Assembly: GCA_001399795.1 (NCBI GenBank)
Contig: LIHK01000056.1
Span: forward strand, 89,873-153,872
Length of the DNA stretch: 64,000 bases
Direction of reading: 5' to 3'
Source: Candidatus Bathyarchaeota archaeon BA2
Lineage (GTDB): Archaea; Thermoproteota; Bathyarchaeia; Bathyarchaeales; Bathyarchaeaceae
Shown: positions 19,414-62,463 of the stretch, one piece after another
Position numbering within the stretch: position 1 is the first letter of the stretch
Layout: each line of letters starts with the position of its first letter
Notes under the pieces: generated by a model
Seen by the model: the letters and a program-made list of their open reading frames with translations, nothing else
The model's database searches: none
Told to the model about the DNA's origin: nothing
Translations under genes and position numbers: made by a program

Positions 19414-19422
19414 CGCTGGTCG

Positions 19423-20529: not shown

Positions 20530-20530
20530 C

Positions 20531-33542: not shown

Positions 33543-33592
33543 GTTTCATCTACCCAAAAATTGAGGAAAAATCTCCTTTATTATGGTAATGT

Positions 33593-34222: not shown

Positions 34223-34248
34223 CTATCTTTCTCCATTAAATAAGCCGA

Positions 34249-36411: not shown

Positions 36412-36414
36412 ATG

Positions 36415-37635: not shown

Positions 37636-37669
37636 GGGAAACAGTCCTTTAAACAGATCTTAATCAACA

Positions 37670-40103: not shown

Positions 40104-40353
40104 GCGTGTTCTAAGATAGAAAATGGATGAATAATAGAAAAAGGTTGTGGGCACTGACACAATCTAGCTGAATTGAACATTTCCATGCTTTAACGGGGAA
40201 GTCGATGCTGGCGAGGTACTGTGAGGCTGGTGTTAGAAGCAGGGTTGTTATGTGTAGCTTAGTGATAGTTGATACAGACTGTAACTAATACAAACCTTTT
40301 TATTTTTAGACTCTGATTTACATACTCACGAAATAAGGTTTATAACAGTTAAA

Positions 40354-45091: not shown

Positions 45092-45583
45092 CTACGGGGC
45101 TCCAAGAGACCATGCGGAGGGCCTTCCACTTCTCGGTCGTCCAGCAGCCACATCGAAAATGTCTTTTAAATCCATCGCTGCAGCTATGTTCCCTTTTATA
45201 TCACCTCTGCCACTAAAGAATGCTGACATTATATCTATTTCCCCGATCATAGACCTGGCGAGGTCGTAATACTTGAGCGTGAGTACTAAATCGGGCTCCT
45301 CACCCTCTGGTTCCCCTGGCTTCATCGAGACAGGGGCAAACATTAGGGTGAGAGGTTCGATTCCACGTTTCGGGTGCTCCGCCCTAATTACTATTAACCT
45401 AGGTGGAATTTGGGCTGCAATATCTAGCGCCTCTGGAGTTATCATAACTTTCCCGATAGTAAATCCATACATTAATTCTTCAAACATGGGTTCTTTTTCA
45501 TGTGCTTTCAGCCATTCTACTTTTTTCCACCATCCATCGGGTAACTCTTTATATTCAGCTTCTTCCGACGACAAACAAATCAC
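45092..45583 (-). CDS. SCP2-like domain protein
   Basis: DLVLTLKYYDLARSMIGEIDIMSAFFSGRGDIKGNIAAAMDLKDIF is a classical SCP2 C-terminal motif; divergent from mcrA. Confidence 0.65.
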   Translation of the reverse strand: MICLSSEEAEYKELPDGWWKKVEWLKAHEKEPMFEELMYGFTIGKVMITPEALDIAAQIPPRLIVIRAEHPKRGIEPLTLMFAPVSMKPGEPEGEEPDLVLTLKYYDLARSMIGEIDIMSAFFSGRGDIKGNIAAAMDLKDIFDVAAGRPRSGRPSAWSLGAP

Positions 45584-45676: not shown

Positions 45677-47500
45677 TTGGAGGAGAAAGAAGAAAGAAAA
45701 AAGTTTTATGACGATAAAGGTCAAATAACGGCTAGAGAGCGCGATTACGTAAGGGAACTCTACGCTGTATCCAAAAAGTTCCTTCCAACCGAAAGAAGAA
45801 GAGCAATCTACTCTAGATTAGAGAAGCAATTTGGCGCAGACCCCCTCAGCCTTGTGGATTCAGAAATGTATAAACGGGGTGGGTACAGGCAATCAAAACG
45901 TAAACAAGAATTCGTTAAGTCGGGTCGACAAATTGCCATAGAAAGAGGCATACCAGCCTATAATCGAGCTGTTGGAATTCCTCTAGGTCAAAGAATTCTT
46001 GAACCTTACGTAATCACTGGGACTGATATTACAGTAGAACAGGATGATACTCATCATGTTAACAATCCAGCCATCCAACAGATGGTGGACGACATCAAGA
46101 GAACCACAATAGTCAACATCGACATCGCCCACAGAATGCTTCAAGTAAGGGCTGGAAAAGAAGTAACTCCGGAAACAATCAACCTCTACTTAGAAACCCT
46201 TAATCATACTATGTGCGGTGGCGCCGTAGCCCAAGAACACATGTCCGAGATTAATCCCTTGCTGGTGAAAGACGCGTATGCTAAGGTGATTACTGGAAGC
46301 GACGAAATTAAAGACGCTCTAGACAGAAGGTACGTCATTGATATTGACAGACTTTTTCACCCAACCAGGGCGGAGCAACTGAAGAAAGCCCTTGGCAACA
46401 GCATCTGGGTGGTTCTTAGAACCCCGACAATAGCGATAAGGATGGCTGATGGTGACGAGGCTCATAGGTGGGCTGCTATGCAGAACACGATGGCTTTTAT
46501 CGGATCCTACGGCCTTTCGGGAGAACACGTAGTTTCCGACCTAGCCTACTCCTTCAAGCACGCCAGAGTTGTAAACATGGGTAACAAAATGTGGTACCAA
46601 AGAATGCGCGGAAGGAATGAGCCCGGCGGCTTCCCAGACGGCTACATATGCGACTTCATCCAATCCGAGCGAGACCTACCGGCAAGACCTTTCTTGGAAG
46701 TTTCAGAGGAGGATCCGGAAGAGGCTAAGAAATATTCCCGTGCTATGTACGAAGGTATCGGCGCAATCGCAGCAGTTCTTGACAATATGATATGGCTGGG
46801 ATTCTACATGAGTGGCGGTATAGGATTCTCAAACACGGTATCCGCTGCAGGTCTCGCAGGAGGCGTAATAGAAGATATCACAGAAGAGCTTATTGAAACG
46901 ACCCACAGATATATCCGAGGTATAAAGAAGGTACCACCAAAATGGGATATTGTCAGATTCATAGTCGATATGATCATACAGTACGTGATGGAATCTTATG
47001 AAAAGTTCCCAGCATTGTCCGAATTCCATTGGGGAGGAGCCCATAAGGTTTCAATCATAGGTAGTATGGGTGCTGGTGTGGCTTCACTTCTCACAGGTAG
47101 TTCAACAATGGGCATGTGGGCTGGCCACTATGCTATAGCGCTGGTTATGAAAGAGGGGTGGTTGAGAACTGGATGGGCTGGACAAGAAATCCAGGATCAC
47201 ATAGGTTTGCCGAGCCTATGTAGCTTTAGGCCTGAAGAAGGCAATTTCGCGGAATTAAGAGGTCTTAACTACCCGATGCAATCATTCAGCGCAGCCCATG
47301 GTTCTCTAAGGGATGCAGCTATATATGGAGCAATGATAGGAAGAGGTTCAGCATGGAGTGCCAGTCCAGTGGTTAAGGTAGCTTTCGCTGATCCGCATCT
47401 GGTCTTTGACTTCAAGAATCCAAGATTATGCATTGCGAAAGCGTGTATAAAGCAATTCATGCCAGCCGGAGAAAGGGGCCCGTCGCTCCCAGCGCATTAG
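45677..47500 (+). CDS. mcrA: Divergent methyl/alkyl-coenzyme M reductase alpha subunit (ACR-like McrA)
   Basis: 607 aa; GGYRQSKRKQEF, ERGIPAYN, GKEVTPETINLYLE, MRGRNEPGG, YMSGGIGFSNTVSAAG, ELRGLNYP, FMPAGERG align with McrA landmarks. TTG is the only start candidate after the in-frame stop at 45635. Confidence 0.9.
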   Translation: MEEKEERKKFYDDKGQITARERDYVRELYAVSKKFLPTERRRAIYSRLEKQFGADPLSLVDSEMYKRGGYRQSKRKQEFVKSGRQIAIERGIPAYNRAVGIPLGQRILEPYVITGTDITVEQDDTHHVNNPAIQQMVDDIKRTTIVNIDIAHRMLQVRAGKEVTPETINLYLETLNHTMCGGAVAQEHMSEINPLLVKDAYAKVITGSDEIKDALDRRYVIDIDRLFHPTRAEQLKKALGNSIWVVLRTPTIAIRMADGDEAHRWAAMQNTMAFIGSYGLSGEHVVSDLAYSFKHARVVNMGNKMWYQRMRGRNEPGGFPDGYICDFIQSERDLPARPFLEVSEEDPEEAKKYSRAMYEGIGAIAAVLDNMIWLGFYMSGGIGFSNTVSAAGLAGGVIEDITEELIETTHRYIRGIKKVPPKWDIVRFIVDMIIQYVMESYEKFPALSEFHWGGAHKVSIIGSMGAGVASLLTGSSTMGMWAGHYAIALVMKEGWLRTGWAGQEIQDHIGLPSLCSFRPEEGNFAELRGLNYPMQSFSAAHGSLRDAAIYGAMIGRGSAWSASPVVKVAFADPHLVFDFKNPRLCIAKACIKQFMPAGERGPSLPAH

Positions 47501-48013: not shown

Positions 48014-48583
48014 TTAGGCTTTAAACCGTTTAGTCAAGCTCGTCATTACCGGAACTAATTTTATTCCTGTCGCCAAATCTCCTTCCAGTTTGAACTGACC
48101 TGCTATGTATCCCTTAACTGGATCAACATCACCTATCAACAGTCCTATCAAAGTCTTCGCATCTGACGAAACCTTGAGATCAGGGGCATCCAAAAGGGCT
48201 GAGCCACCAGAAATTTTTCCACCACTCAGTTTAAAATGACCCTTTAAGGGGCTGTCGGTGGCTTCAAAGTTAACCTTTATTTCCCCTGCATTTACCACTT
48301 TTTTCTTAACTTCCTCGTCTTTCTCAACGAGTATGCCTACACCTTCCCACAAAACGTCCGTGAATGCTGCTGATGCTTCAGGTGCCTCGGTCACGAATTT
48401 TCTAACGTCGATCGATCTTAAGTTATTTACTAACCTCAATGCTAAATCCGGCATTGCCTCCATCAGGTTTCCAACGCCAAATGCTTTTACTCTCTCCACT
48501 AAAGGAGGGAGAGCAGTTTTCAGCTCATTTTCTGACATCTTGAGCGCTTTGTCTACGTCTTTCTTCAATTCTTCCGCACTCAT
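48014..48583 (-). CDS. SCP2-like domain protein (189 aa)
   Basis: DLKVSSDAKTLIGLLIGDVDPVKGYIAGQFKLEGDLATGIKLVPVM is an SCP2 C-terminal motif. Confidence 0.7.
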   Translation of the reverse strand: MSAEELKKDVDKALKMSENELKTALPPLVERVKAFGVGNLMEAMPDLALRLVNNLRSIDVRKFVTEAPEASAAFTDVLWEGVGILVEKDEEVKKKVVNAGEIKVNFEATDSPLKGHFKLSGGKISGGSALLDAPDLKVSSDAKTLIGLLIGDVDPVKGYIAGQFKLEGDLATGIKLVPVMTSLTKRFKA

Positions 48584-48776: not shown

Positions 48777-50141
48777 TTATGTGAGCGTACTATGTCTAGT
48801 ATCCTTATAGAATTCCTTTAATATAATCGTGATTAACCTAATTTCTTCTCCTTGCTTTTTTACCTCTCGCAAAAATGTGTTGTATAGTTCATTTGTGATG
48901 GGTAGGGGTCGAGACCTAACCATTGAAGCTGTGAGCATTAAATCGAATGCTCTTGCCTCTGCAACCGTTAATTTATGTAAAACGCCGAGTTTACTGGAAT
49001 CTTTAATGAATACAGGGTTCTCCTCCCGAGATAATTGGACAACTTCCCCGGCTAGTAAGGTTCCCGGTAAAGGGTCCGCTATGCTTATAGAATAATCATC
49101 CAACATTAGTTCCTCCACCAACTCTTTGGTTTCAGCATAATCTTCGTCTGTCTCCCCAGGGTATCCAACGATGAAAGCCCCCGCCACCTCCAACTTGGCT
49201 TCGCGGGCTCTTTTAACTCCCTCCATAATTTTGTCAACCGTTATTCCTTTCCTCATTTTAGCAAGTATTCTGTTGCTCCCAGATTCCATTCCATAAATAA
49301 CAAATCCAATCGTATACTTTCTAACAGCTTTTAACATAGCTTCATTAACCATGTCTACCCTCAGGTCGGGAACTGAAAGATTGTAGGGTCCCGTTATTCG
49401 GCTAACTTCTTTTAGCATGGTGATAAATGCTTCATCATTTAATTTAGACCCCTTACAGCCATATTGATTTGATGTACCCCCAAAAAGCGCTATTTTTTGT
49501 GCTCCAGCTTCTACGAAGGCTTTTACCTCCACAACTATGTCATTTACTGGACGCGATCGGACTTCACGACCGAAGAAGCATGGAACTTGACAGAAACTAC
49601 AATTCCCTAAACAGCCCCTATGCGTCTCTATATAAACATTAGCCCCTCGAATGTTTTGCCGTCCAATATTTTGAGGAATCTCCGGTAAGGCTCGGCCATC
49701 TAAACTGGCTGGCTTCCGGGGATGGGTCTTAACCATCTCGTTATCATGTTTAAACGATATCCCGTTAACTTCCTCTAAATTCCTCTTGGTTTTGAGGGCT
49801 TCTATGAGTTCGGGGGCTGTTTCTTCTCCCTCACCAATTACAACCACATCTATTTCCGGCAAGATTCTGAAGACAAGTTCGGAAATTTGGCTTATGGGAC
49901 CGCCAACTATGATTAAAGGTTTCAAGCCTACTTTAAGCTTTGAAACTAACTCCCTTGCATTTAAGAGATGAGAAACGGAGGTTAAACTTAAACCGATAAT
50001 ATCCATGCCCATTACGTTTTGTGGGCGAAGATTATTGAATAAACTAATTTGGTGTCCTCCTTTTTTTAATATACCACCAATTAACATTGCTCCATAAGAG
50101 AATACTTCTGGTGAAATTATTGCAATTTTCACCCTTCCCAT
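48777..50141 (-). CDS. B12-binding-domain radical SAM enzyme (class B)
   Basis: N-terminal Rossmann-like B12 domain (KIAIISPE...LIIVGGP...VVIGEGE), then HRGCLGNCSFCQVP (CX3CX2C). Confidence 0.8.
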   Translation of the reverse strand: MGRVKIAIISPEVFSYGAMLIGGILKKGGHQISLFNNLRPQNVMGMDIIGLSLTSVSHLLNARELVSKLKVGLKPLIIVGGPISQISELVFRILPEIDVVVIGEGEETAPELIEALKTKRNLEEVNGISFKHDNEMVKTHPRKPASLDGRALPEIPQNIGRQNIRGANVYIETHRGCLGNCSFCQVPCFFGREVRSRPVNDIVVEVKAFVEAGAQKIALFGGTSNQYGCKGSKLNDEAFITMLKEVSRITGPYNLSVPDLRVDMVNEAMLKAVRKYTIGFVIYGMESGSNRILAKMRKGITVDKIMEGVKRAREAKLEVAGAFIVGYPGETDEDYAETKELVEELMLDDYSISIADPLPGTLLAGEVVQLSREENPVFIKDSSKLGVLHKLTVAEARAFDLMLTASMVRSRPLPITNELYNTFLREVKKQGEEIRLITIILKEFYKDTRHSTLT

Positions 50142-50214: not shown

Positions 50215-51969
50215 TTGTCCCTTAAATGGGTGACTTTAATCATGACGCGTAGAGACACCGCAGTTCGGGTAGTTAATTTATCTAAAAGCTATACTCTCGA
50301 GTGTGGGGAGAAAGTTCGAGTTCTAGAAAATATCTCCTTTAATCTTTATCGAAACGAAATTTTAGGATTTATTGGCAGAAGTGGTGGGGGTAAAACAACA
50401 CTTATCCGAGTGCTTAGGGGTGTTGAGCCCTTTGATGAGGGGGAAATTTGGATTAACAATGTTCACCTCACTCCTAAGGCATCAGAAGATGATATAAGGA
50501 AAGTTCGCGAAACAACTGCCATACATCTTCAACGCTCTTTTGGCCTTTGGGCGGCAAGCACCCTAGAAAATGTGATGAGACGACTATATGCCTTAGAGAC
50601 AGGAGACGAAACTGCTCCACTCCCATACGACGAGTCCGACTATAGGAGACTTGAGGAGGAGAGTATGAGGATACTTAAAGCAGTAATGTTAGCTCAAAAA
50701 GCTAATCATCCCGCACATACGCTAAGCGGCGGGGAAAAGCAAAGACTGGTGTTGGCAAGGCAACTTGCAATGGCCAGCCGAAAGCCAATAACATTACTAT
50801 TAGACGAGCCTGTTACAATGTCTTGTCTGGCAACAAAACAAGTAGCCTTGGACTGGATTAAAAAAATACGGGATCAACTTGACGTATCCATAATTATTGC
50901 TTCCCATCTCCCCTCCATCCTCAAATATCTAGCGGATAGGGCGATTTGGCTGGAAAAGAAGATTATTGCAGTTGGCAAACCCAAGGAGATCATCGACAAA
51001 TTTCTCGCCCAAATGGAGGTACCCGTAAGTTTGAAAACCGTACCTAGATCTAAAAAGAAGATCATTAAGGTTCAAGACTTAACCCAAAGCTACCGTGCTG
51101 AAATATCTGAGGATTCATTTGAAATGAAAAACTTGAATTTTGAGGTTTACAATGGGGAAATCCTAGTTATAATTGGTCCATCTGGAGTAGGAAAAACTGT
51201 TTTAATTCGTTTACTCTCAGGATTGGAGCTTCCTGAAAAAGGTAAGGTACTTTATAAGCTGGAAAATAAAAGGGTGAACATCGCAAAATTAGGCTATGAA
51301 GCCGTGATGACCCGTAGAAGGATCGGCGTGGTTCATCAAGAATTAGATTTGGCCTACGGCGCTACAGTCAAGGATTTAGCTTTGGCGAGGCTTGGATTAA
51401 AGGGTGAAAAAGCGTTAATTATGGCCAAAGAAAAGGCGAAGGAGTTGGGGTTGAAGGAGGAGATTGTGGATTCTATCTATCGGTTGTGGGATTACCCAGA
51501 ACGGGAAATGATTAAAAAATTTGAGAAACTGGGATTAGAAAAAGAGGTGGTAAAGAGTCTTTTCCCAATTGCCCCCTGGGAAGCCGTATCAGAAATGTTT
51601 GAACCGATGTTTAGACTATTCAATTTATCACCCGATCTGTTAAATAGGAAATCTCACGAATTGTCGGGTGGGGAGAAAATAAGAGTTGCCATCGCTCTAG
51701 AACTCCTCTCTAGGCCAGAGGTCCTCTTTTTAGATGAACCTTTCGGTGACTTAGATCCGATAACTCTTAGAAACTTGTCAAACGTTCTAAAGTTTGTCAA
51801 CAATGAGTTTAATGTAACCATAGTCCTTGTGAGTCATCATGTGGATTTTGTTAAGGAAGTTGCCCATCGAGCAATACTCATGAGGGAAGGAGAAATAGTG
51901 GAAGAAGGAGACCCGATAAAACTTTGTGAACGCTTTATCGGGGAAAGCCAAGCTCAGTTTATTAACTAA
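50215..51969 (+). CDS. Double-ABC ATPase, component-A2-like paralog (lacks the Zn-ribbon insert)
   Basis: Two ABC cassettes: GRSGGGKTT / LSGGEKQRLVLARQL / LLLDEP and GPSGVGKTV / LSGGEKIRVAIALEL / LFLDEP. The A2-like IIASHLPSILKYLADRAIWLE is present. Confidence 0.65.
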   Translation: MSLKWVTLIMTRRDTAVRVVNLSKSYTLECGEKVRVLENISFNLYRNEILGFIGRSGGGKTTLIRVLRGVEPFDEGEIWINNVHLTPKASEDDIRKVRETTAIHLQRSFGLWAASTLENVMRRLYALETGDETAPLPYDESDYRRLEEESMRILKAVMLAQKANHPAHTLSGGEKQRLVLARQLAMASRKPITLLLDEPVTMSCLATKQVALDWIKKIRDQLDVSIIIASHLPSILKYLADRAIWLEKKIIAVGKPKEIIDKFLAQMEVPVSLKTVPRSKKKIIKVQDLTQSYRAEISEDSFEMKNLNFEVYNGEILVIIGPSGVGKTVLIRLLSGLELPEKGKVLYKLENKRVNIAKLGYEAVMTRRRIGVVHQELDLAYGATVKDLALARLGLKGEKALIMAKEKAKELGLKEEIVDSIYRLWDYPEREMIKKFEKLGLEKEVVKSLFPIAPWEAVSEMFEPMFRLFNLSPDLLNRKSHELSGGEKIRVAIALELLSRPEVLFLDEPFGDLDPITLRNLSNVLKFVNNEFNVTIVLVSHHVDFVKEVAHRAILMREGEIVEEGDPIKLCERFIGESQAQFIN

Positions 51970-52435
51970 ACTTGTAGTTTAGTCAACTTCTAGGGTTTCG
52001 GGAGAATTGCGTTTTCCGAAATTCTGCAATTATTGGAACTATTTTTCAAAAGGGATTGATGAAATGGAGACCGCCTAATCTATTAGAGAGTAGTTATGGC
52101 TCTTTTAAAAACATCTCGTATATGTTGATGTGTTGTCGCCTTTAGTTCATCAAAAGCTTCTTTCATGTAGTAGTTACTTACTTATAGAAGAATGGCATTT
52201 CTCTTCAACTCAGTGCTTTCAGGTGTCTCAAGCAGTTCAATAACACAATACAAGTTGTCGTGTTCTTGTATTGTTTTAAATCTTCTAGTATTTTTTGCTC
52301 TGCCAACTTCTTTATTTGTTGAGCCCAGTGCAATCCCTTGGATTTTAGTTGGTGTTTTTCGAGGTCTTCTAATCCTCAAGCCCCTATTCCTTCTGCATCT
52401 AAAGTCATTTGGACACCTAATTTTTAGCAGAAGAC

Positions 52436-52687
52436 TTACACTTTCTTTAGATAAGGATTTGCACATTTTGGGCATTCAGGCTCTCTTAAAGCCTCTTCGG
52501 GGTCTCCCATCCACGCACACCTGGGACATTGTAGCTTTCCGTCTCTCCTTTTTAGAATCCTGAAAGTCTTGATGTGACCTGTGAGGCAATCAGGGCAAAC
52601 TGGAACAAAAGCGGCTTCTTTGTCGTCTCCCTTCCATCCGCAGGTGCATTCCAACAACAGGTTCTCCACCCTCTTACTTTTTACCAA
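52436..52687 (-). CDS. Small multi-zinc-ribbon protein
   Basis: 83 aa with CTC..., CPDC, CPRC, CPKC pairs; overlaps the stop of the upstream QueG-like gene by 14 nt. Confidence 0.5.
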   Translation of the reverse strand: MVKSKRVENLLLECTCGWKGDDKEAAFVPVCPDCLTGHIKTFRILKRRDGKLQCPRCAWMGDPEEALREPECPKCANPYLKKV

Positions 52688-53525
52688 CAGGGCAAACTTC
52701 TGCGCAAATTTGACAATACGGAAAGTCTCCCTTTTCTCTTTGCCACTTCAGGTATTCTGTTATGAGTGGATATTTAGCGCTATACCTTGGGAGCACTATC
52801 AACGCTGTAGGTCTTGCATTTATCCAGTCACTAGGAGGAATTTCAATCTTAGAAAGACGAACTAATCCTTGAATTCCCCATAGATGTCTATTCAAGTCAA
52901 AATTGTAAGGGGGCGCCTTTTCTCTACTCAGGGCCTGAGGTGGACAGGCCTCCACGCATCGGAAGCACTTTCTGCAGGTTTCTTCATATATTTTTCCAGC
53001 CAACCGGGGACCATCCGGCTTTAGTGGGGCATTAGTGATTATGCTGGTTAATTCAATCCTTGGTCCCCACTCTGGAGTTAATAAGAAGTTGTTGGCACCT
53101 ATGTCCCCCAGACCAGCTATCTGACCTACATACCTATGTGAAAGCATGCAGCTAACCCAACGTCTTTCATCTACAGAAATGTTGGGGTCGAGAGGCACGG
53201 CGCTGTAACCTTTCTTCTCCAAAAACTTAGTTAGGATCATGGATTTCTCGCGTAGCTCATCTTGCAATGTTTGTTTTACAGTGGCAAAGGTAGACAGGAC
53301 TATGAATATGTCTTCTTTTGATTGTTCGAAAGCACCTTCTGGATACTTAATGCATAATGATATTATGGACTTAGCGTCCTTTAGGATTGAGAAAGGTGAT
53401 GTGAAGAACATCGGGGTTTTATCTGCTCTTTCGGCCTCTGCAACACCAACTTTGTCAAGTCCTATGCTCAGTGCGTTTTGTTTAACTTCACTTGTTAATA
53501 TTTCATCATATGTCAAAATTGTCAC
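52674..53525 (-). CDS. QueG / reductive-dehalogenase-family 4Fe-4S protein
   Basis: SHRYVGQIAGLGDIGANNFLLTPEWGPRIELTSIITNAPLKPD, CRKCFRCVEACP, CQICAEVCP. Confidence 0.55.
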   Translation of the reverse strand: MTILTYDEILTSEVKQNALSIGLDKVGVAEAERADKTPMFFTSPFSILKDAKSIISLCIKYPEGAFEQSKEDIFIVLSTFATVKQTLQDELREKSMILTKFLEKKGYSAVPLDPNISVDERRWVSCMLSHRYVGQIAGLGDIGANNFLLTPEWGPRIELTSIITNAPLKPDGPRLAGKIYEETCRKCFRCVEACPPQALSREKAPPYNFDLNRHLWGIQGLVRLSKIEIPPSDWINARPTALIVLPRYSAKYPLITEYLKWQREKGDFPYCQICAEVCPVGKK

Positions 53526-53526
53526 C

Positions 53527-55119
53527 TCAAAATCCAGTTGAAATCAAAGCCTTTTTCTCTGTTTCCACCATGATGTTTACAACATCTTCCGGGTCGCCAA
53601 TAGTTTCTATTTTACCATTTCTCATGTAAGCAGCTCGATCGCACGCTATCCTGATGAAGTCAATATCATGGCTTATGATTAAATATGTTTGCCCTAAAGC
53701 GTCTCTCGCGTTTCTAATGCTCCTCGCAATCTCAACCCGCGTTATTGGATCCGCAGTGCCAGTCGGCTCATCCAACAGCACGATCTTAGGTTCCTTCATA
53801 AGAGAACGGGCGATACATACTCTATGTCTTTCTCCCTCACTAATCTGGTCTGGATATTTGTAAAGCAAGTATTCTATTTCTTTATCTGTAAAGTTTACCC
53901 CCCTCAAAACCTCGTAGGCCTTTTTGGTCTTTTGTTCTTCTGGCAAGGGTTCTTCCACAGCGCCAACAAGGTTCTCTAGAATTATTCTTCCGGCGTGCAA
54001 CGTGTACTCTTGGTGTAGAATATCCATTTTTGATGCAATCATTCCTCTTTCATCAGGTCCAGGAATACTCATGTCAAACCATTCTTCTCCTCTCTTCACC
54101 AGTATTTTGCCAGTGGTTGTAGGCTTTATGCCCATCATCATGTGCGCCAACGTAGTCTTTCCGCTTCCACTAAGACCCACAATTCCGAATATTTCACCTT
54201 CATATATTTTAAGATCAACGCCGTCCACTGCCTTCACGAGACCTCTATCGAATGTGTAATACCATTTCTTTACACCCTCACACTCCATTATCGGGTTGGT
54301 TCCTCTATACCTTTCAACTTGCACTTTTTCCACTTTCTCCATAAAAGCATTGTAGACATCTTCGGATTTTCCCATCACAGTTAACTCTCCGTTTTCTAGT
54401 AGGGCAGCCTCTTCAGATAACGCTTTAATAGCTTCTGGCCAATGCGAGGTTATGACAAGAGTTATGTGATCCCTATTGACGGCTTCCCTAATCACTTCAT
54501 GCACCACTTCGCTGGTGATCGGGTCCAAGGTGCCTGTGGGCTCGTCTGCAAGGAAAAGCAACGGATTCCTCGCTAAGCACATGGAAAATATGACTCTTTG
54601 CTTTTCGCCTCCGGAGAGGTCTCTTCCCAGATGAAGAAGCCGATGATCCAGCTTGACATGTGATATAAGCTCCGCAGCCCTCATGTCAATTTCCCCCTCG
54701 GGGTATCCGACGCTGATCAAAATTCTTCTGACGTTTTCTATGGCTGGAAATTCGCTGTATAGAGAGAAGCCTCGTTGAGGCATGATCGCGATCCTGTCAT
54801 GTAGCGTCAAGGACAGTCTAGTTTGCTTCTTCAACTCCTCCCAGTAATCAACCTCTCTAAACTCCATCGTCGTGGAGCACTTGGGGCATGGTTCCTCCTT
54901 CTTGGAAGGATACTCGACCCAGTGACAGTTAGGGCAATATGAAAGCCTGAAGATAATTTGTCCGTATGTCGGTTCATATTCAAGGATTCCCCTAATTGAC
55001 TGCATGATAATAGATTTCCCGTGACCGCTTTTGCCTAGTAGTCCAAAGGTTCCCCCTTCCCTAATTGTGAATGATATGTTTTTGATTATGGGGAGCCCTC
55101 TGACGAACTCTTTTGTCAA
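53527..55119 (-). CDS. atwA: Methyl-coenzyme M reductase system component A2 (double-ABC ATPase)
   Basis: GKSGHGKSIIMQSIRGILEYEPTYGQIIF, Zn-ribbon insert CPNC...CPKC, DLSGGEKQRV, FLADEPTGTLDP, ITSHWPEAI, and a second cassette GLSGSGKTT. Confidence 0.8.
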   Translation of the reverse strand: MTKEFVRGLPIIKNISFTIREGGTFGLLGKSGHGKSIIMQSIRGILEYEPTYGQIIFRLSYCPNCHWVEYPSKKEEPCPKCSTTMEFREVDYWEELKKQTRLSLTLHDRIAIMPQRGFSLYSEFPAIENVRRILISVGYPEGEIDMRAAELISHVKLDHRLLHLGRDLSGGEKQRVIFSMCLARNPLLFLADEPTGTLDPITSEVVHEVIREAVNRDHITLVITSHWPEAIKALSEEAALLENGELTVMGKSEDVYNAFMEKVEKVQVERYRGTNPIMECEGVKKWYYTFDRGLVKAVDGVDLKIYEGEIFGIVGLSGSGKTTLAHMMMGIKPTTTGKILVKRGEEWFDMSIPGPDERGMIASKMDILHQEYTLHAGRIILENLVGAVEEPLPEEQKTKKAYEVLRGVNFTDKEIEYLLYKYPDQISEGERHRVCIARSLMKEPKIVLLDEPTGTADPITRVEIARSIRNARDALGQTYLIISHDIDFIRIACDRAAYMRNGKIETIGDPEDVVNIMVETEKKALISTGF

Positions 55120-55549
55120 ATTTTTAACTATAAGAAAATTGTCAGCCAGATTTACTCACCGAGTATTATTAGACCTTCACTATATAAATTATTTTTGAGA
55201 ATTTAGAGAGGCTGAAAAGTTTGAGAGACTGCAAGTTTTTCCATTAGCCGCATCATGAGGATGTGAATACAAACCTAGTTGAAGATGAAGTGTAGACGCT
55301 GAACCAATTCTGAGGTCTGTTTAGGTCGTCGTGCCCGGCTCTATAAGTCTTAGAAGTTCATGATGCAACTTGTATTCTTCATGCTTTCTGTTATTAACGT
55401 TTATCATGCCAAAGCTCAACTTATCCGAGCCTTCCAAGATTTCTTATTGCCAGCTCAGATTCTGGCATAAATTCCTTTGTAATTTCAGCGTAAACATTAA
55501 ATAATTTGAGAAATTATAATTTTTTGTTTTAGCGAGAAAGGGACGAGTA

Positions 55550-56941
55550 TTGTCAAACCTGTCTTTAAAATATAAAGATACATTAGACCTATACGATGAT
55601 CATTCCAATTGTATTGCAAAAGAAGTGCCGCTGCAAGCTCTCTCACCGTTATATAACCCCTATATGAGGGAGGTTTTAAATCTTTTCAAAAGAACAGCTT
55701 TTATTGACCTAGCCAAGCTGGAGCAATATGTAAAGTCTGGAAGAGCAGGCTGGGAAACAGTCGTTGGGCAAGATGAGATTCAAATGCCTTGGTACGGTAG
55801 GGACCTGCCTATGGTTGAGCGTTCAGAGGAAATAGCTGAGAGAATAAAAGAGAAAATCGCAAAATTCGATGACGGAGAGGAGGAGCTTGTGAAGCCTGTA
55901 GCAGGTGGCAAGCTAATCATTGTTAAGATACCGAGAAGAATGATGGAAGTTTCAGCCAGCCGCGACCCACCGCTCACATGGACGATGGTGGCTTTATGTC
56001 AAGCTATATCTGAAACTTTCAATTTGAATCCTGAAACTGACCCGGATGGCTGCAACATGGTGAGAGGAGCCATCTTTGGAAGGTACCCTCAATCCCCTGA
56101 GTTGCCTCCTGGTGGACCTGTTTTCGGACTTTTGAGGCAAAGCAACATCGTGGACGGTTTGGGGAGCGGGTTTAGAGGAATAATGGTGAATCACATTGTG
56201 GCCCTAGTTAATAAAAGAACTATGGACGGTGTTGCTTTAGCCACAATTTTGGAACAAGGTGCACAGTGGGAGATGGGTAACGTGTTGGGATGGTTTGAAA
56301 GATATAATCTCCTTGCGTCAGCCTACCAAGGCTTCAACGCAAACAATCTTGTTCTAGACCTCGTTCTGGAGAACAGGGAGGGAACTATAGGAGACGTTGC
56401 ACGTAGCACGGTGAAAAGGGCTGTAGAGGACGGGGTCATAAAAGTCAAAAAAACTTTTCCATCGGGGTACAAGGTCTATAGTACGAGTGACTATCCTCTT
56501 TGGAACGCATATGGTTGCGCTGGAGTGCTAGCTGCGGTAATAGTTAACGTTGGAGCGAGTAGAGCTGCACAAAGTGTTTCAACCGTTACAGGTTATTTTG
56601 GCGACCACTTGATTTTTGAGACTGGGGGGTTACCTGACCCTGACACTGGCAGAATTGAAGGCACAGGCATAGGCTATGCGTTCTACACCCATTCCATATA
56701 TGGCGGAGCGGGTCCTGGTGCGTATACTTTAGACCATGTTGTCGTAAGGAGTACCTCAGGTTTCTTAACTCCATGTGTCGTTGCAGGTATGTGTCTCGAT
56801 TCTGGAACTCAACTTTTCTCTCCTGAAATGACCTCCAGTGCTTTGTTCAAGATAAGAGATCACATGCCGTTACTCAACGAGCCGTTGAAAAAAGTGGCTG
56901 AGGCAGCTGAAAAGGTTAAAGGAGAATTAACAAAGGCATAG
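55550..56941 (+). CDS. mcrB: Methyl/alkyl-coenzyme M reductase beta subunit
   Basis: YKDTLDLYDD at the N-terminus; HSIYGGAGPGAYTLDHVVVRSTSGFLTPCVVAGMCLDSGTQLFSPE parallels the canonical HSIYGGGGPG...CVAAA..DAGTQMFSPE; TTG start. Confidence 0.9.
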   Translation: MSNLSLKYKDTLDLYDDHSNCIAKEVPLQALSPLYNPYMREVLNLFKRTAFIDLAKLEQYVKSGRAGWETVVGQDEIQMPWYGRDLPMVERSEEIAERIKEKIAKFDDGEEELVKPVAGGKLIIVKIPRRMMEVSASRDPPLTWTMVALCQAISETFNLNPETDPDGCNMVRGAIFGRYPQSPELPPGGPVFGLLRQSNIVDGLGSGFRGIMVNHIVALVNKRTMDGVALATILEQGAQWEMGNVLGWFERYNLLASAYQGFNANNLVLDLVLENREGTIGDVARSTVKRAVEDGVIKVKKTFPSGYKVYSTSDYPLWNAYGCAGVLAAVIVNVGASRAAQSVSTVTGYFGDHLIFETGGLPDPDTGRIEGTGIGYAFYTHSIYGGAGPGAYTLDHVVVRSTSGFLTPCVVAGMCLDSGTQLFSPEMTSSALFKIRDHMPLLNEPLKKVAEAAEKVKGELTKA

Positions 56942-56942
56942 T

Positions 56943-57761
56943 TTGAAGGTGATGCACGTGGCAAGTGAAAAGAGAGAGGAAAAAAGTGAATTCGAGCCTC
57001 AAATCTACCCTGGACAGGATGAGGTGTCAGAAAGAAGGAGAAAGCTTTGGGATAAGCGTCGACGCCTAACAAAGTATCGAGACGTACCAGACGATGACAT
57101 AACCCGCCTTCTGGGTCATAGGCCGGTTGGAGCACTATATGTAAGTGTCCATCCACCTCTTGATGAACTTATAGAACCATACGACCCGATAAAAAGTCTA
57201 GTTGCTCCGACACCAGGGGCGAGAGCAGGGGATAGGATAAGATTTGCTCAGTTTTCAGATAGTTTTTGGCATCCTCCAATAACTCCCTATGCTAGGCAAA
57301 GACTCTATTTTAATAGACTCAGAGGTGTCGATGTTGTCACCTATAGCGGCAGAACAATGTTAGAGATGAGGGAGCGGGATTTAGAAACAGCTGTAAAGCC
57401 TCTAATCGAAACCGAAGTATTCAACCCAGCTAGAACAAGTTTGAAAGGAATAACTATTCACGGACACTCTTTAAGGCTTGATGAAGATGGCCTAATGTTC
57501 GACGCTAGGCGAAGATTCGTTTACGATAAAGAGACAGGCGAGGTAGTTTACATTAAGGATCAATTCGGCAAAGTTTTAGACAGGCCAGTGCCAGTCGGGC
57601 GCCCCCCCTCAGAAGAGGAATGTAGAAAACTGAGTATAACCTACAGTTGGGATACCCGACAATTTAAATCCAGAACCGAAGTAATAGAGCTAATCTCAAG
57701 AGTTGCAAATATGAGGGTATTGGCAGGATTCAATCCCGAATCAATCAACGAGGAGATTTAA
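56943..57761 (+). CDS. mcrG: Methyl/alkyl-coenzyme M reductase gamma subunit
   Basis: PQIYPGQDEVSERRRK, FAQFSDSFWHPP, MLEMRERDLE, GHSLRLDEDGLMFD align with McrG. The true start may be ATG 56952 or GTG 56958. Confidence 0.9.
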   Translation: MKVMHVASEKREEKSEFEPQIYPGQDEVSERRRKLWDKRRRLTKYRDVPDDDITRLLGHRPVGALYVSVHPPLDELIEPYDPIKSLVAPTPGARAGDRIRFAQFSDSFWHPPITPYARQRLYFNRLRGVDVVTYSGRTMLEMRERDLETAVKPLIETEVFNPARTSLKGITIHGHSLRLDEDGLMFDARRRFVYDKETGEVVYIKDQFGKVLDRPVPVGRPPSEEECRKLSITYSWDTRQFKSRTEVIELISRVANMRVLAGFNPESINEEI

Positions 57762-58365: not shown

Positions 58366-59187
58366 ATGGAGCTGAAACTTCTTCGAGTAGACCTTTCGAC
58401 AGAAATCATCAAAGAAGAGAAAGTAGACGAAGCAACAACCAAGAAGTTTGTGGGAGGCCGTGGAGTCGGAGTAAAGATCCTTTTCGATGAACTTAAACCA
58501 GGAACAGACCCATTAGGTCCAGAAAACAAGCTGATCTTCATGACGGGTCCGGCTACAGGAACAGCATTTCCAGCGAGTGGAAGATTCCACGTAATTACCA
58601 AATCCCCCCTCACAGGCAGGATCGGGGATACAAACTGCGGTGGCAACTGGGGTCCAGAACTGAGATTCGCTGGCTTTGAGGGTATCATTTTTGAAGGAAA
58701 GGCGAAGGAACCTGTTTACCTTTGGGTTCACGAAGGCGAAGCCGAACTGCGAAGCGCTAGAAAATATTGGGGTAAGGGGGTCTGGGACACTGAAGATGGG
58801 ATTTGTGAAGAACTCGGGGAACCCAAGGCAAAGATAGCGAGCATAGGGCCAGCAGGCGAGAACCTAGTTTTATCCGCAGCCATTATGAACGACAAACACA
58901 GAGCGGCTGGCAGAACGGCTGCAGGAGCTGTAATGGGTTCCAAAAACTTGAAAGCTATAGCAGTCCATGGAACAGCCAAACCCCCCGTGGCTGACCCAGA
59001 AGGATTACGAGAGACTGTAAAGAGAATTCTAGAAAAACTTAAAGAGAACATGGTCACTGGCGAATCGCTTCCAACCTATGGGACCTCTGCCCTAATTAAT
59101 GTTATCAATGCATTTGGCATCTTTCCGACTCGTAACTTCCAAACTGGAGTATTCCCTACGGCTGAGAAGATAAGTGGTGAAACAATA
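58366..59187 (+). pseudogene. AOR-family gene, N-terminal fragment (codons 1-274), interrupted by an insertion
   Basis: LLRVDLS..., GGRGVGVKILFDE, GPATGT, AGAVMGSKNLKAIAVHGT, ...FPTAEKISGETI, then out-of-family sequence and a stop. Confidence 0.8.
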
Positions 59188-61496: not shown

Positions 61497-62463
61497 GCGA
61501 AAACCGTTTTAGTTAAGAATAAGCCCTGCTGGGGTTGCACCATAGCCTGTGGACGAGTTAGCCGCGTGGTCAAGCCGCCTTATCAAGTTGAGGGCGAAGG
61601 TCCTGAGTACGAAACCGACTGGTCCCTGGGAGCTCAATGCGGTATCGACGATCTGGACGCCATAACTAAAGCTCACAATATTTGCGATGAAATGGGCATT
61701 GATCCAATATCCTTTGGAAACACCGTAGGTTGTGCAATGGAACTTTATGAGAAGGGAAAAATACCCAAGGAAAAACTCTACGGACTTGAATTAAAGTTTG
61801 GTAATTCTCAAGCAATAGTGGAACTGGCTTGGAGAACTGCCTACCGCATTGGTTTTGGCAACGACATAGCGTTAGGGGCTAAACGTTTAGCAGAGAAGTA
61901 TGGAGCTCCTGAGATCGCCATGCACGTTAAAGGCTTGGAACTCCCTGCCTACGACCCACGAGGCGCCAAGGGGTACGGTTTGGCGTATGCCACATCTAAC
62001 CGTGGAGGATGTCACCTAAGAGCCTACATGATCGCCCCAGAAATTCTAGGTATTCCAGAGAAGCTCGACCCGCTCAAGACAGAAGGGAAGGCATCATGGG
62101 TTAAAACGCTCCAAGACGTCTGCTCAATATGCGACTCGCTTGTTCGTATGCAAATTCTTGGCCTTTGCGCTAGGGGCTGAAGACCTCATCAATCCCATTA
62201 CGGGATGGAATTGGTCCACAGACGACCTCTTAAAGACCGGTGACCGCATCTACACGCTTGAGCGCATGTTCATCAACCGAGAGGGCTTCGACCGAAAAGA
62301 CGACACACTCCCACTGAGGTTACTGAAGGAACCCATGCCTGAAGGTCCCGTCAAAGGGCATGTTGTTGAGCTAGAAAAGATGCTTGATGAATACTACGAG
62401 GCCAGAGGCTGGAAAAACGGCAAGCCCACAAAAGAGAAACTAGAGGAGCTAGAGTTAACTTAA
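61491..62463 (+). pseudogene. AOR-family gene, C-terminal fragment (continuation of 58366-59187) with an additional 1-nt frameshift near 62144
   Basis: The frame opens exactly at 61491 after a TAG: TIAKTVLVKNKPCWGCTIACGRVSRVVKPPYQVEGEGPEYE...GLELPAYDPRGAKGYGLAYATSNRGGCH. DSLV then shifts frame into CKFLAFALGAEDL...EYYEARGWKNGKPT. Confidence 0.8.

Follow-up and report, generated by a model that had tools for sequence, protein, structure and literature searches.

The region studied here makes up the accessory section of an island of alkyl-coenzyme M reductase (ACR) genes in Candidatus Bathyarchaeota archaeon BA2. It carries an operon for an ACR-type component A2 (AtwA), a compact cytoplasmic protein (QueG-like) with a predicted corrinoid-binding fold and a putative two-[4Fe-4S] module, and a small zinc-ribbon protein (Znr). 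Judged by sequence, the QueG-like protein is the founder of a small family present only in ACR lineages (Bathyarchaeia, Hadarchaeota, Methanoliparia, Helarchaeota and Syntrophoarchaeum), and both it and Znr are confined to archaea that oxidise multi-carbon alkanes with ACR. For the QueG-like protein, the most probable role is that of a low-potential tetrapyrrole/Fe-S redox partner during maturation or activation of ACR. We give a probability of roughly 40% to the fuller reading, in which it would serve with A2 or its homologue ABC2 and the Mmp/McrC proteins in an ACR-specific redox or cofactor-handling step. The A2/QueG-like/Znr set, travelling with ACR across four archaeal phyla, is a possible missing helper in the anaerobic oxidation of alkanes.

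The ACR island of BA2

The window, that is, the whole 64,000-nucleotide stretch that was analysed, contains the following features; the four ORFs described earlier (A2, QueG-like, Znr and ABC2) were all confirmed at the positions given for them.

32694–40160 (−), canonical MCR activation/marker operon: Mmp3, Mmp6, Mmp5, Mmp15, Mmp17, Mmp7, McrD-like, McrC, Mmp8
40354–43007 (+), FAD_binding_4 (GlcD-like) and CCG/TfrB-like Fe-S pair (Pfam; NCBIfam TfrB 234 bits, below cutoff)
45677–47500 (+), acrA, alpha subunit, KPV61791.1 (Pfam MCR_alpha_N and MCR_alpha)
48777–50141 (−), B12-binding radical SAM MCR glutamine C-methyltransferase (TIGR04014, 543.6 bits, cutoff 360)
50215–51969 (+), ABC2, double-ABC ATPase of the 'A2 homolog lacking the zinc motif' family, KPV61794.1
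52436–52687 (−), Znr, twin zinc-ribbon protein, 83 aa maximal ORF
52674–53525 (−), QueG-like, QueG/RDH-fold Fe-S protein, 283 aa, KPV61797.1
52692–52715 (−), second Fe-S motif of QueG-like, C271-x2-C274-x3-C278-P (invariant columns)
52944–52976 (−), first [4Fe-4S] motif of QueG-like, C184-x2-C187-x2-C190-x3-C194-P (invariant in 16 family members)
53527–55119 (−), MCR/ACR component A2 (AtwA), ACR-associated type, KPV61798.1 (TIGR03269)
54877–54936 (−), zinc-binding motif of A2, C62-x2-C65-x12-C78-x2-C81 (CPNC...CPKC; read from sequence)
55550–56941 (+), acrB (Pfam MCR_beta)
56943–57761 (+), acrG (Pfam MCR_gamma)

The acrB and acrG genes are transcribed divergently from the A2 operon, and the beta subunit is itself divergent in sequence, since it scored 415 bits against the McrB cutoff of 516. 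The alpha-subunit gene had been thought to adjoin them, but acrA lies apart, and its product is 62.6% identical to the ACR alpha subunit of Methanoliparum and 61% to that of Helarchaeota. The glutamine C-methyltransferase gene is divergent from ABC2, and the ABC2/methyltransferase/acrBGA arrangement was also found in L085. All products of the Mmp operon except the McrD-like one matched their NCBIfam models above cutoff. This operon lacks A2, which is displaced from there, whereas methanogens keep A2 in it (bioRxiv 10.64898/2026.03.18.712670). As canonical Mmp3/5/6/7/15/17 and McrC are also in the window, the QueG-like/Znr pair would be an ACR-specific add-on and not a replacement. The same island holds aldehyde:ferredoxin oxidoreductase (AFOR) genes, two SCP2 lipid-carrier proteins and the CCG/TfrB-like protein, which is of the CoM/CoB-thiol type, and a BtuCDF-like transporter is encoded in the window.

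Component A2 and its zinc-motif-less homologue

In MCR-family enzymes the nickel of F430 has to be activated reductively, and component A2 is the ATPase that powers this. The protein encoded at 53527–55119 carries two ABC_tran domains, scored 638.1 bits with TIGR03269 (cutoff 517.1) and 494 bits against the Methanococcus maripaludis A2 chain (PDB 9H1L/8S7V), and contains the CPNC...CPKC insert, so its original assignment as A2 stands. The zinc motif was present in 20 of 20 aligned A2 sequences and in none of 13 ABC2 sequences; as CXXCX12CXXC it has been described before (bioRxiv 10.64898/2026.03.18.712670). In a neighbour-joining tree, the BA2 protein grouped with Hadarchaeota (100%) and then Methanoliparia (98%), placing it among ACR-associated A2 groups and not in methanogen branches. 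Its identity was 76–81% to Hadarchaeota, 60–62% to Methanoliparia, 55–59% to Helarchaeota, 47–52% to Syntrophoarchaeum and Alkanophaga, and 45–49% to methanogens. Co-evolution of A2 with ACR is the independent conclusion of the same 2026 preprint. The A2 frame remains open upstream of the TTG and encodes the conserved first beta-strand there, where the in-frame sequence ADNFLIVKNLTKEF resembles MPEDFLIVKDLTKEF of an orthologue; the true start probably lies upstream of the TTG, at the CTG at 55150–55152.

Domains and alignment agreed with the earlier description of the second ATPase, ABC2, as a double-ABC protein without the zinc insert. The database copy has 575 aa, which makes the ATG at 50242 the likely start. 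The protein is not a generic ABC-F or ECF ATPase: its best-scoring model was TIGR03269, although at 281.7 bits it fell under the cutoff of 517.1, and it matched the PDB A2 chain with 189 bits. Over its full length it is 47–48% identical to zinc-motif-less A2 homologues of Methanobacterium and Methanomicrobiales. We rejected the idea that ABC2 is a recent A2 duplicate, since the tree split the two with 100% bootstrap and grouped ABC2 with these methanogen homologues; the 'duplicated A2' of the original prediction is thus a member of a zinc-motif-less paralogue family that methanogens have too. This family (MA_3967) has already been described and served as an outgroup in bioRxiv 10.64898/2026.03.18.712670. 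Within it, ABC2 of BA2 fell in an ACR-lineage subclade with BA1, Hadarchaeales and Helarchaeota (100%), and the ABC2 genes of ACR lineages are located in the ACR island.

The QueG-like and zinc-ribbon proteins

The QueG-like gene directly follows A2 on the same strand, as first noted, a single nucleotide separating its GTG start from the TGA stop of A2. GenBank annotates the product as 'Epoxyqueuosine reductase'. The profile-HMM check proposed earlier gave partial matches, far below both cutoffs: reductive dehalogenase (RDH) model TIGR02486 gave 62.9 bits (cutoff 160) and QueG model TIGR00276 gave 53.9 bits (cutoff 200), while Pfam returned 4Fe-4S domains only. The best PDB profile match was 8Q4H (69.8 bits). 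The AF2 model (pLDDT 79) is of low confidence at residues 118–126 and 198–209, near the expected active-site loops. Foldseek matched it to QueG, PceA and NpRdhA with E values of 1e-11 to 1e-7 (QueG, 1e-11), and more weakly to CblC/MMACHC (E about 1e-3, TM 0.33) and CblD; all significant matches were corrinoid binders.

The first [4Fe-4S] motif aligns with QueG Cys188/191/194/198, and the second matches the pattern Cys214...Cys240-x2-Cys243-x3-Cys247. At position 214, the eighth ligand, BA2 and Methanoliparum carry His where most orthologues carry Cys, so the eight-ligand QueG pattern is retained as seven invariant cysteines plus Cys/His. Conservation is strong across some 180 residues of the non-ferredoxin core. 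In the family alignment, G138, G140, G143, T150, E152 and G154 are invariant, and they lie in a segment that corresponds to the cobalamin-facing LSDR...GIG...N...TPEYG stretch of QueG and PceA. Two catalytic residues of QueG, Asp134 and Arg141, are replaced. The domain search found neither the DUF1730 nor the HEAT domains of true QueGs, and reading of the sequence found no TAT signal and no RdhB-like neighbour. A genuine QueG was rejected on the sub-cutoff score, the missing HEAT domain and the replaced Asp134 and Arg141.

The downstream gene had been predicted to encode an 83-aa zinc ribbon with four CxxC pairs and a 14-nt overlap with the QueG-like gene. The zinc ribbon was borne out; the overlap exists only with the TTG start, and the BA2 protein has one CxC and three CxxC. 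Since orthologues have 77 aa, the GTG at 52669 is suggested as the true start, and Znr is probably a 77-aa protein. Its invariant positions are C14/C16, W18, G20, C31-P-x-C34, G37-H38, R43, C54, C57 and E71-C72-P-x-C75. Pfam and NCBIfam gave no match, the AF2 model (pLDDT 85) had no significant fold match in the PDB, and only 12 relatives were found at E≤1e-3 among 1.84 billion representatives.

Distribution and gene linkage

Among 5.8 billion clusters, 17 QueG-like orthologues were found (211–651 bits; next match, 57 bits), and all those with names come from ACR lineages. In a GTDB scan, identities of at least 38% occurred only in Hadarchaeota, Methanoliparia, Helarchaeota, and Syntrophoarchaeum and relatives, below which came bacterial proteins with 29–31%. 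Neither the clusters nor the scan detected the family in ethane oxidisers or named Alkanophaga, which have ACR and A2. We found no mention of the gene in the literature and its supplements.

The QueG-like gene adjoins A2, the A2 homologue or acrG in about 25 of about 48 loci, and Znr lies directly downstream of it in 23 of 24 non-Helarchaeota loci. The complete A2/QueG-like/Znr order, with gaps of 0–50 nt, was observed in BA2, nine Hadarchaeota loci and six Methanoliparia loci, answering the earlier question of whether the triad is kept in other genomes. The order in Helarchaeota is acrA-x-x-A2-SCP2-acrB-acrG-QueG-like, and in L023 it is QueG-like-Znr-x-A2, while in L085, L093 and L086 QueG-like(-Znr) and ABC2 point towards each other, next to acrBGA or Mmp3-6-5-15-17-7. 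The arrangement goes far beyond what chance would give, with one gene order recurring in at least five lineages, and its conservation across phyla speaks against a randomly placed tRNA epoxyqueuosine reductase. Helarchaeota also have solitary QueG-like paralogues and lack the zinc ribbon, and in Syntrophoarchaeum the QueG-like/Znr pair sits amid housekeeping genes, distant from A2 and acr. Frequent neighbours elsewhere are AFOR genes and the CCG/TfrB-like gene; the latter directly adjoins QueG-like/Znr in Hadarchaeota, L085 and L093 (co-directional in L085 and L093) and is absent from the Methanoliparia, Helarchaeota and Syntrophoarchaeum loci. In Methanoliparum, a RACo-type corrinoid activator is encoded 4 kb from QueG-like. 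The ranking of identities across lineages runs parallel for QueG-like, A2 and acrA, which suggests that the accessory genes travelled together with those of ACR across four phyla.

Possible roles of the QueG-like protein

In the reading that we prefer, electrons would pass to the two low-potential clusters of QueG-like and on to a bound tetrapyrrole, most simply a base-off corrinoid and conceivably F430 itself. Together with the canonical Mmp/McrC proteins and either A2 or ABC2, the protein could then perform an extra step in maturation or in Ni(II)-to-Ni(I) activation, and Znr might be its docking adaptor. Against this, the activation set in the window is complete, so no gap in the known machinery asks for a further component. 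The neighbourhood by itself fits activation and a downstream pathway alike, and the Syntrophoarchaeum placement, the Helarchaeota paralogues without Znr, and the ethane oxidisers and named Alkanophaga without the family count against activation as well.

An unlikely alternative is that QueG-like is the missing enzyme acting on the ACR product. Its super-reduced Co(I) corrinoid would attack the thioether carbon of alkyl-S-CoM, releasing CoM and forming alkyl-cobalt. This would be resolved to an alcohol or aldehyde, which the neighbouring tungsten-containing AFORs would then oxidise to the fatty acid. Precedents for such chemistry are the attack of QueG on an epoxide carbon and that of methyltransferases on methyl-CoM. 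The fold, shared with enzymes that form Co–C bonds, the confinement to multi-carbon ACR hosts, the AFOR, SCP2 and CCG genes of the island (CCG directly beside the pair in several lineages), the Methanoliparum RACo and the BtuCDF-like transporter are all consistent with it, and corrinoid methyltransferases or Aor have already been proposed as candidates for this step (PMC10811742; PMC6478937). However, the most constant neighbour is the A2-family ATPase and not AFOR, and ethane oxidisers and named Alkanophaga, in which no member of the family was detected, have to carry out this step too. In addition, no conserved catalytic acid equivalent to QueG Asp134 is present, and we infer that SN2 attack on secondary alkyl-CoM isomers would be chemically unfavourable.

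It is also rather improbable that the protein retained the RDH/QueG scaffold, dropped its tetrapyrrole and became a two-cluster, ferredoxin-like electron-transfer subunit with Znr as structural partner and, possibly, the FAD/CCG (GlcD/TfrB-like) heterodisulfide-linked oxidoreductase as redox partner. Pfam matches limited to 4Fe-4S domains, the CCG adjacency, the unconserved QueG catalytic residues and the low model confidence near the active-site loops would fit this, but some 180 conserved core residues, the cobalamin-facing segment included, are hard to explain for a plain ferredoxin, and Methanoliparia, Helarchaeota and Syntrophoarchaeum loci have no CCG neighbour.

A supporting role towards the cobalamin-dependent radical SAM modifiers of ACR, as a dedicated cob(II)/cob(I)alamin reductase or a CblC-like corrinoid processing or dealkylating protein, is very improbable. 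The B12-binding glutamine methyltransferase is 2.5 kb distant and shows linkage in L085 and L018 too, CblC/MMACHC and CblD are among the fold matches, and the island has the BtuCDF-like importer. Nevertheless, methanogens have the same modifiers without a QueG-like protein, with which the family's restriction agrees, the CblC matches are weak, and the methyltransferase is an inconsistent neighbour. Finally, a genuine epoxyqueuosine reductase or dehalogenase placed here by chance, beside a generic transporter ATPase, has almost no prospect of being correct and was rejected: the GenBank name, the best NCBIfam matches and the PhnC and ECF models that ABC2 also matches are outweighed by the sub-cutoff scores, the missing domains, TAT signal and RdhB-like neighbour, the replaced residues, the use of archaeosine and not queuosine by archaea, the conserved placement, and the best model and tree of ABC2, whose family is specific to MCR/ACR archaea.

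Comparison with known systems

Like MCR component A2 (PDB 9H1L/8S7V chain K), the BA2 protein has two nucleotide-binding domains and an N-terminal CxxCx12CxxC, and its alignment with the M. maripaludis protein runs over the full length. It differs in its ACR-associated branch, in a first canonical start codon that falls within the conserved N-terminal strand, and in a gene that lies outside the Mmp operon as the first of an operon with two genes absent from methanogens. ABC2 shares both nucleotide-binding domains and the lack of a zinc motif with the MA_3967-type homologue, but belongs to the ACR-lineage subclade, whose genes adjoin the glutamine methyltransferase, acrBGA, the QueG-like gene or the Mmp operon, whereas the homologue of Methanobacteriales neighbours oxidative-stress genes.

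With QueG (PDB 5D08, 5T8Y, 5D6S), the QueG-like protein appears to share, as modelled, the cobalamin-domain fold and the two-[4Fe-4S] ferredoxin module, together with the eight-ligand pattern and the G-x-G...N...TPE[WY]G core segment, but it is 100 residues shorter, carries other residues at the catalytic positions, and has A2, ACR and a zinc ribbon as partners in a domain that lacks queuosine. The predicted fold and cluster arrangement also match those of reductive dehalogenases (RdhA/PceA, NpRdhA), which gave the top NCBIfam partial match and the top PDB profile match; they are 450–700 aa long, compared with about 280 aa, and have a TAT signal, an RdhB anchor and substrate-channel inserts that QueG-like lacks. 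By analogy of function, the operon may resemble the RACo/RamA activators of corrinoid proteins and the A2 plus McrC/Mmp activators of MCR. In each case the genes for an ATPase and a low-potential Fe-S protein lie together beside an enzyme that needs a super-reduced metal. There is, however, no relationship in sequence to RACo or RamA, and since BA2 also possesses the canonical Mmp/McrC electron path, the operon would add a component to that path and not stand in as its equivalent.

Component A2 and its operon

The following three genes lie on the same strand:

52436–52687, minus strand: Znr, a twin zinc-ribbon protein
52674–53525, minus strand: QueG-like, a QueG/reductive dehalogenase (RDH)-fold Fe–S protein of 283 aa (KPV61797.1, GenBank label 'Epoxyqueuosine reductase')
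53527–55119, minus strand: A2, component A2 (AtwA) of the methyl-CoM reductase (MCR) and alkyl-coenzyme M reductase (ACR) systems, 530 aa (KPV61798.1, GenBank label 'putative ABC transporter ATP-binding protein')

In a whole-protein profile search, A2 scored 638.1 bits against the equivalog model TIGR03269 (curated cutoff 517.1), and two stretches matched Pfam ABC_tran, giving two nucleotide-binding domains with the Walker A motifs GKSGHGKS and GLSGSGKT readable in the sequence. The protein contains the zinc motif C62PNC65-x12-C78PKC81, and an N-terminal CXXCX12CXXC zinc-binding motif has been described as the hallmark of A2 versus related ABC ATPases (bioRxiv 10.64898/2026.03.18.712670). [quoted passage not shown] In-frame sequence upstream of the first canonical start encodes the conserved first beta-strand, FLIVKNLTKEF; upstream of the TTG at 55119, the A2 frame (window 55119–55152, minus strand) reads VNLADNFLIVKN, which matches the N terminus of the Hadarchaeota orthologue, MPEDFLIVKD. 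No ATG, GTG or TTG was present within this stretch, and the true start may be the CTG at 55150–55152, or the start codon may have been lost or mis-assembled.

In methanogens, A2 belongs to the Mmp activation operon (bioRxiv 10.64898/2026.03.18.712670); in the window it lies outside that operon, having moved beside acrBG. The same preprint concluded that A2 has co-evolved with ACR. The window A2 is therefore a known kind of protein, for which an ACR-dedicated role is plausible.

The QueG-like protein is neither a QueG nor a classical dehalogenase

As predicted, a QueG/RDH-family gene directly follows A2 on the same strand, its GTG start lying 1 nt past the TGA stop of A2. Public records label this gene 'epoxyqueuosine reductase' or '4Fe-4S binding protein', an annotation trap that the analysis clears up. 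QueG-like scored 53.9 bits against the QueG model TIGR00276 (equivalog cutoff 200), its orthologues scored 41–62 bits, and a Pfam search found no match to PF13646, PF03130 (HEAT) or PF08331 (DUF1730). True QueGs in the match list are ~380–420 aa long and carry both DUF1730 and a C-terminal HEAT tRNA-binding domain, whereas QueG-like has neither. The QueG catalytic residues include Asp134 as general acid, with roles also assigned to Arg141 and His106 (PMC5175355); in a profile alignment, the family has His, Asn or Val in place of Asp134 and Leu or Ile in place of Arg141. As a classical reductive dehalogenase the protein fares no better, with 62.9 bits against the RdhA model TIGR02486 (subfamily cutoff 160.35) and no twin-arginine (TAT) motif at its N terminus, MTILTYDEILTSEV. 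Respiratory RdhA is accompanied by an adjacent RdhB membrane anchor, while the gene downstream of QueG-like encodes a soluble zinc ribbon and no RdhB neighbour was found. A genuine QueG, which with random placement would have refuted the original prediction, and a genuine RDH are both essentially excluded.

The AF2 model of QueG-like (pLDDT 79, pTM 0.77) retrieved QueG (E 1.2e-11) and PceA (E 1.4e-10) in Foldseek, both with probability 1.0, followed by NpRdhA (E 4e-8) and, more weakly, CblC, all of them corrinoid binders. A profile search of the PDB again returned QueG, PceA and NpRdhA. The model thus assigns QueG-like to the QueG/RDH/CblC superfamily fold, with a bacterial-ferredoxin module predicted after a nitroreductase-like corrinoid domain. 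The cluster ligands follow the pattern C184x2C187x2C190x3C194...[C/H]214...C271x2C274x3C278, and this eight-ligand pattern for two [4Fe-4S] clusters is shared with QueG (PMC5175355). QueG-like is particularly well conserved along the stretch whose counterpart faces cobalamin in QueG and PceA, which supports a putative bound corrinoid.

Znr was predicted as an overlapping zinc ribbon with four CxxC knuckles. Its nature and position were borne out, while the first knuckle is CxC in BA2 and CxxC in all orthologues. The gene overlaps QueG-like; its likely start is internal to the maximal ORF, and should translation begin at the GTG at 52669, the two genes would instead be separated by 4 nt. No Pfam or NCBIfam model matched Znr, and at E<=1e-3 only 12 relatives were found among 1.84 billion representatives, about eight of them proteins of 77–81 aa. 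Invariant positions comprise the eight Cys of the two ribbons together with W18, G20, G37-H38, R43 and E71. The structure model was confident (pLDDT 85), and a fold search with it gave no significant structural neighbour (best match E 0.96). In its pattern (CPxCxW...EPxCPKC) the second ribbon is similar to the A2 zinc motif, and tblastn repeatedly paired Znr residues 54–77 with the motif of the neighbouring A2 (40–52% over 23 aa, E 0.04–9); an exhaustive HMMER search with Znr returned no A2. Homology between the two motifs is therefore unproven, a resemblance without statistical significance.

The QueG-like family was found only in ACR hosts

Among 5.8 billion protein clusters, 17 orthologues of QueG-like scored 211–651 bits, and the next match scored 57 bits. 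All named orthologues came from Hadarchaeota, Methanoliparum, Helarchaeota or Syntropharchaeia. A GTDB scan, with one genome per species, found the family in these lineages and in Methanolliviera and Syntrophoarchaeum at 38–69% identity, so that, with BA2, it spans four phyla and five multi-carbon ACR lineages. Beyond the family, identity dropped to 29–31%, to uncharacterised bacterial and Methanothrix proteins; the nearest outgroup consists of proteins of 260 aa from Desulfobacterales, Smithella and Methanothrix, which, as uncharacterised members of the QueG/RDH superfamily, give no functional lead. Neither the cluster search nor the GTDB scan detected QueG-like in methanogens, ANME, ethane oxidisers or named Alkanophaga, an absence that is provisional because the scans depend on sequence patterns.

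The GTDB scan also found QueG-like on two contigs binned as a bacterium, one of them with acrBG. They belong to the record 'Candidatus Deferrimicrobium sp. SMAG_U14084' and are archaeal-like: loci L019 and L022 each hold a Helarchaeota-like QueG-like gene, L022 together with acrB, acrG and A2. The bacterial label is probably a binning error.

Gene order was compared at ~48 orthologous loci by tblastn of the window proteins. The loci came from GTDB genomes, JGI metagenomes and Logan/ENA assemblies, and their counts are upper bounds on independent observations because different collections may hold the same sequence.

Gene orders around QueG-like (x, other gene; L numbers denote loci from other genomes or metagenomes)
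A2/QueG-like/Znr, gaps 0–50 nt: BA2, nine loci of Hadarchaeota and six of Methanoliparia
acrA-x-x-A2-SCP2-acrB-acrG, then or facing QueG-like: five Helarchaeota-type loci
QueG-like-Znr-x-A2: L023
CCG-QueG-like-Znr facing ABC2-GlnMT-acrBGA: L085, L093
QueG-like facing ABC2 beside the Mmp operon: L086
QueG-like-Znr alone amid housekeeping genes: five Syntrophoarchaeum-type loci
Solitary QueG-like paralogues: about 17 Helarchaeota-type loci

The predicted triad is thus conserved in Hadarchaeota and Methanoliparia, and in Methanoliparum the full order is acrBGA-A2-QueG-like-Znr. Znr directly followed QueG-like in 23 of the 24 non-Helarchaeota loci with downstream sequence, and was not found in the Helarchaeota loci. 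The surroundings of the Syntrophoarchaeum pair and of L023 contain only housekeeping genes, and their context is therefore uninformative.

Amino acid identity to the window proteins
Hadarchaeota: QueG-like 65–69%, A2 76–81%
Methanoliparia: QueG-like 51–54%, A2 60–62%, acrA 63%
Helarchaeota: QueG-like 44–49%, A2 55–59%, acrA 60–61%
Syntrophoarchaeum: QueG-like 38–41%, A2 47–51%

The parallel ranking of identities among the compared proteins fits a joint transfer with the ACR genes, and the QueG-like family is physically linked to ACR activation ATPases in four phyla.

The second ATPase belongs to a known family

50215–51969, plus strand: ABC2, a double-ABC ATPase of 584 aa (KPV61794.1)

ABC2 was described in the original prediction as a double-ABC protein without the zinc insert, which agrees with its two ABC domains and with an alignment in which the zinc-motif region is deleted; its likely start is internal to the maximal ORF. 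It scored 281.7 bits against TIGR03269, under the A2 cutoff of 517.1, and a Methanobacterium member of the same family was also below it (353.6 bits). In a neighbour-joining tree of 20 A2 and 13 ABC2 sequences (100 bootstraps), the two groups separated with 100% support, and the zinc motif was present in 20/20 A2 and 0/13 ABC2 sequences. The window A2 clustered with Hadarchaeota (100%) and next with Methanoliparia (98%), while the window ABC2 clustered with BA1 (100%) and then with Hadarchaeales and Helarchaeota (100%); the sister of this ACR-lineage group consists of Methanobacterium and Methanomicrobiales members, the whole ABC2 clade having 100% support. The phylogeny therefore placed the 53527 gene with A2, as expected, and the 50215 gene with zinc-motif-less homologues and not with A2. 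Ordinary methanogen proteins share 47–48% identity with ABC2 over its full length, and these orthologues, together with the tree, contradict the proposed duplication of A2 and rule out a recent duplicate. A zinc-motif-less paralogue of A2 and ACR-specific A2 branches have already been described (bioRxiv 10.64898/2026.03.18.712670), and by its sequence ABC2 is assigned to this known family, the MA_3967 type, a link that follows the preprint's description.

What is ACR-lineage-specific about ABC2 is its genomic location. It lies inside the ACR island in BA2 and Hadarchaeota, stands in the order ABC2-GlnMT-acrBGA in L085 (GlnMT, glutamine C-methyltransferase) and adjoins Mmp3-6-5-15-17-7 in L086. 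Methanobacteriales homologues sit amid oxidative-stress genes, which hints at a possible redox-stress-related role for the paralogue. In Methanobacterium petrolearium (L168) and a MAG labelled Methanomicrobiales (L169), the homologue lies in an oxygen-defence cluster of rubredoxins, ferritin, peroxiredoxin and superoxide dismutase, with a flavin reductase as the next gene.

The genes are part of one large ACR island

17815–21316, plus strand: BtuF/BtuC/BtuD-class ABC importer
22265–24211, 58366–59217, 59349–61232 and 61566–62180, plus strand: four tungsten-type aldehyde:ferredoxin oxidoreductase (AFOR) ORFs
32694–40160, minus strand: canonical activation/marker operon (Mmp3, 6, 5, 15, 17, 7, McrD-like, McrC, Mmp8), without A2
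43560–45032, plus strand: 490-aa protein
45092–45583 and 48014–48583, minus strand: two SCP2 (sterol/lipid carrier) proteins flanking acrA
45677–47500: acrA, MCR alpha subunit (KPV61791.1), with 62.6% identity to the ACR alpha subunit of Methanoliparum
48777–50141: MCR glutamine C-methyltransferase
55550–57761: acrB and acrG

All genes of the activation/marker operon exceeded their curated cutoffs except the McrD-like gene, and the operon of this Bathyarchaeon is complete. Since Mmp3, 5, 6, 7, 15 and 17, McrC and Mmp8 are all present in the window, we rejected QueG-like as a stand-in for missing canonical activation proteins.

The best NCBIfam models for the importer were vitamin B12 permease and corrinoid transporter ATPase, below cutoff, and its binding protein has a PGF-pre-PGF domain; it may provide corrinoid uptake encoded within the island. 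Two of the AFOR ORFs are full length; the other two are fragments, one covering an N-terminal part (283 aa) and one an internal part (204 aa), which suggests duplication and then decay, or assembly errors, beside acrG. In Ca. Methanoliparum thermophilum (L002 10957–12771), a RACo-type corrinoid-protein reductive activator and a DUF1638 gene lie next to an AFOR, ~4 kb downstream of the acrBGA-A2-QueG-like-Znr operon. The SCP2 proteins could plausibly carry hydrophobic substrates, alkanes or alkyl-CoM; a homologous SCP2-like gene lies between A2 and acrB in Helarchaeota operons (L001 5126–5629), and a further one after Znr in Methanoliparum (L002 7481–8002). The 490-aa protein, just upstream of acrA, matched no Pfam or NCBIfam model and showed weak similarity (~25%) to tandem 204/180-aa genes between acrA and A2 in Helarchaeota operons (the loci compared were L001 2398–3520 and L021 781–3342), and is another conserved ACR-linked gene. 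An Rfam scan of the window gave no matches.

Proposed function and relation to known systems

With the identities and folds of the parts, their restriction to ACR hosts and their conserved operonic linkage established, the QueG-like fold and an A2-family ATPase as its most constant partner point to an ACR-specific redox or cofactor-handling step as the best explanation, with a probability of about 0.4. QueG-like would act with A2 or ABC2 beside the canonical Mmp/McrC machinery, its two low-potential clusters would push electrons into a tetrapyrrole metal, and Znr would serve as adaptor.

The main rival is that QueG-like acts on alkyl-CoM by Co(I) chemistry and feeds the neighbouring AFORs. This reading, which we consider unlikely, would fill the step from alkyl-CoM to acyl-CoA, called unknown in the primary papers (PMC10811742, PMC6478937). 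A little less likely still, QueG-like would be an electron-transfer subunit that lacks a tetrapyrrole and serves the adjacent FAD/CCG enzyme. Two such FAD/CCG pairs lie in the island:

30051–32680 and 40354–43007, plus strand: two FAD_binding_4 (GlcD-like) and CCG-domain gene pairs

The best model for the CCG-domain proteins, below cutoff, was thiol:fumarate reductase TfrB, making them TfrB/HdrD-like, and the pair may act in the ACR pathway as an oxidoreductase linked to CoM/CoB thiols. A CCG gene lies directly beside QueG-like/Znr in Hadarchaeota (L006–L009) and in two metagenomic lineages (L085, L093). Cobalamin servicing of B12-radical-SAM modifiers is improbable.

It is possible, if doubtful, that QueG-like/Znr is a hitherto unrecognised, ACR-specific catalytic component of alkane oxidation in archaea, either an enzyme that removes the alkyl group from alkyl-CoM by means of a Co(I) corrinoid, or a tetrapyrrole-based reductant or F430 handler without which ACRs, in contrast to MCRs, would not become active. 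If so, the QueG/RDH superfamily would gain a new reaction class, and long-chain ACRs would likely require the pair for functional heterologous expression. Archaeal anaerobic alkane oxidation poses two problems, the maturation and activation of ACR and the way acyl-CoA is formed from alkyl-CoM. The QueG-like family is small and sharply bounded, with a fold known for cobalt–carbon chemistry and a zinc-ribbon partner of its own; it was found only in ACR hosts, is linked to the ATPases and is a concrete, conserved and testable candidate for either. QueG-like/Znr is also an obvious gene pair to add in heterologous ACR expression.

In the ACR papers and supplements searched for QueG, dehalogenase and A2, neither the pair nor its linkage to ACR was found. 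Taken together, the second A2-like ATPase belongs to the known paralogues without zinc motif and did not arise by an ACR-specific duplication, and QueG-like/Znr adds to the QueG/RDH superfamily a new branch with sharp bounds, whose partner and genomic role are also new.
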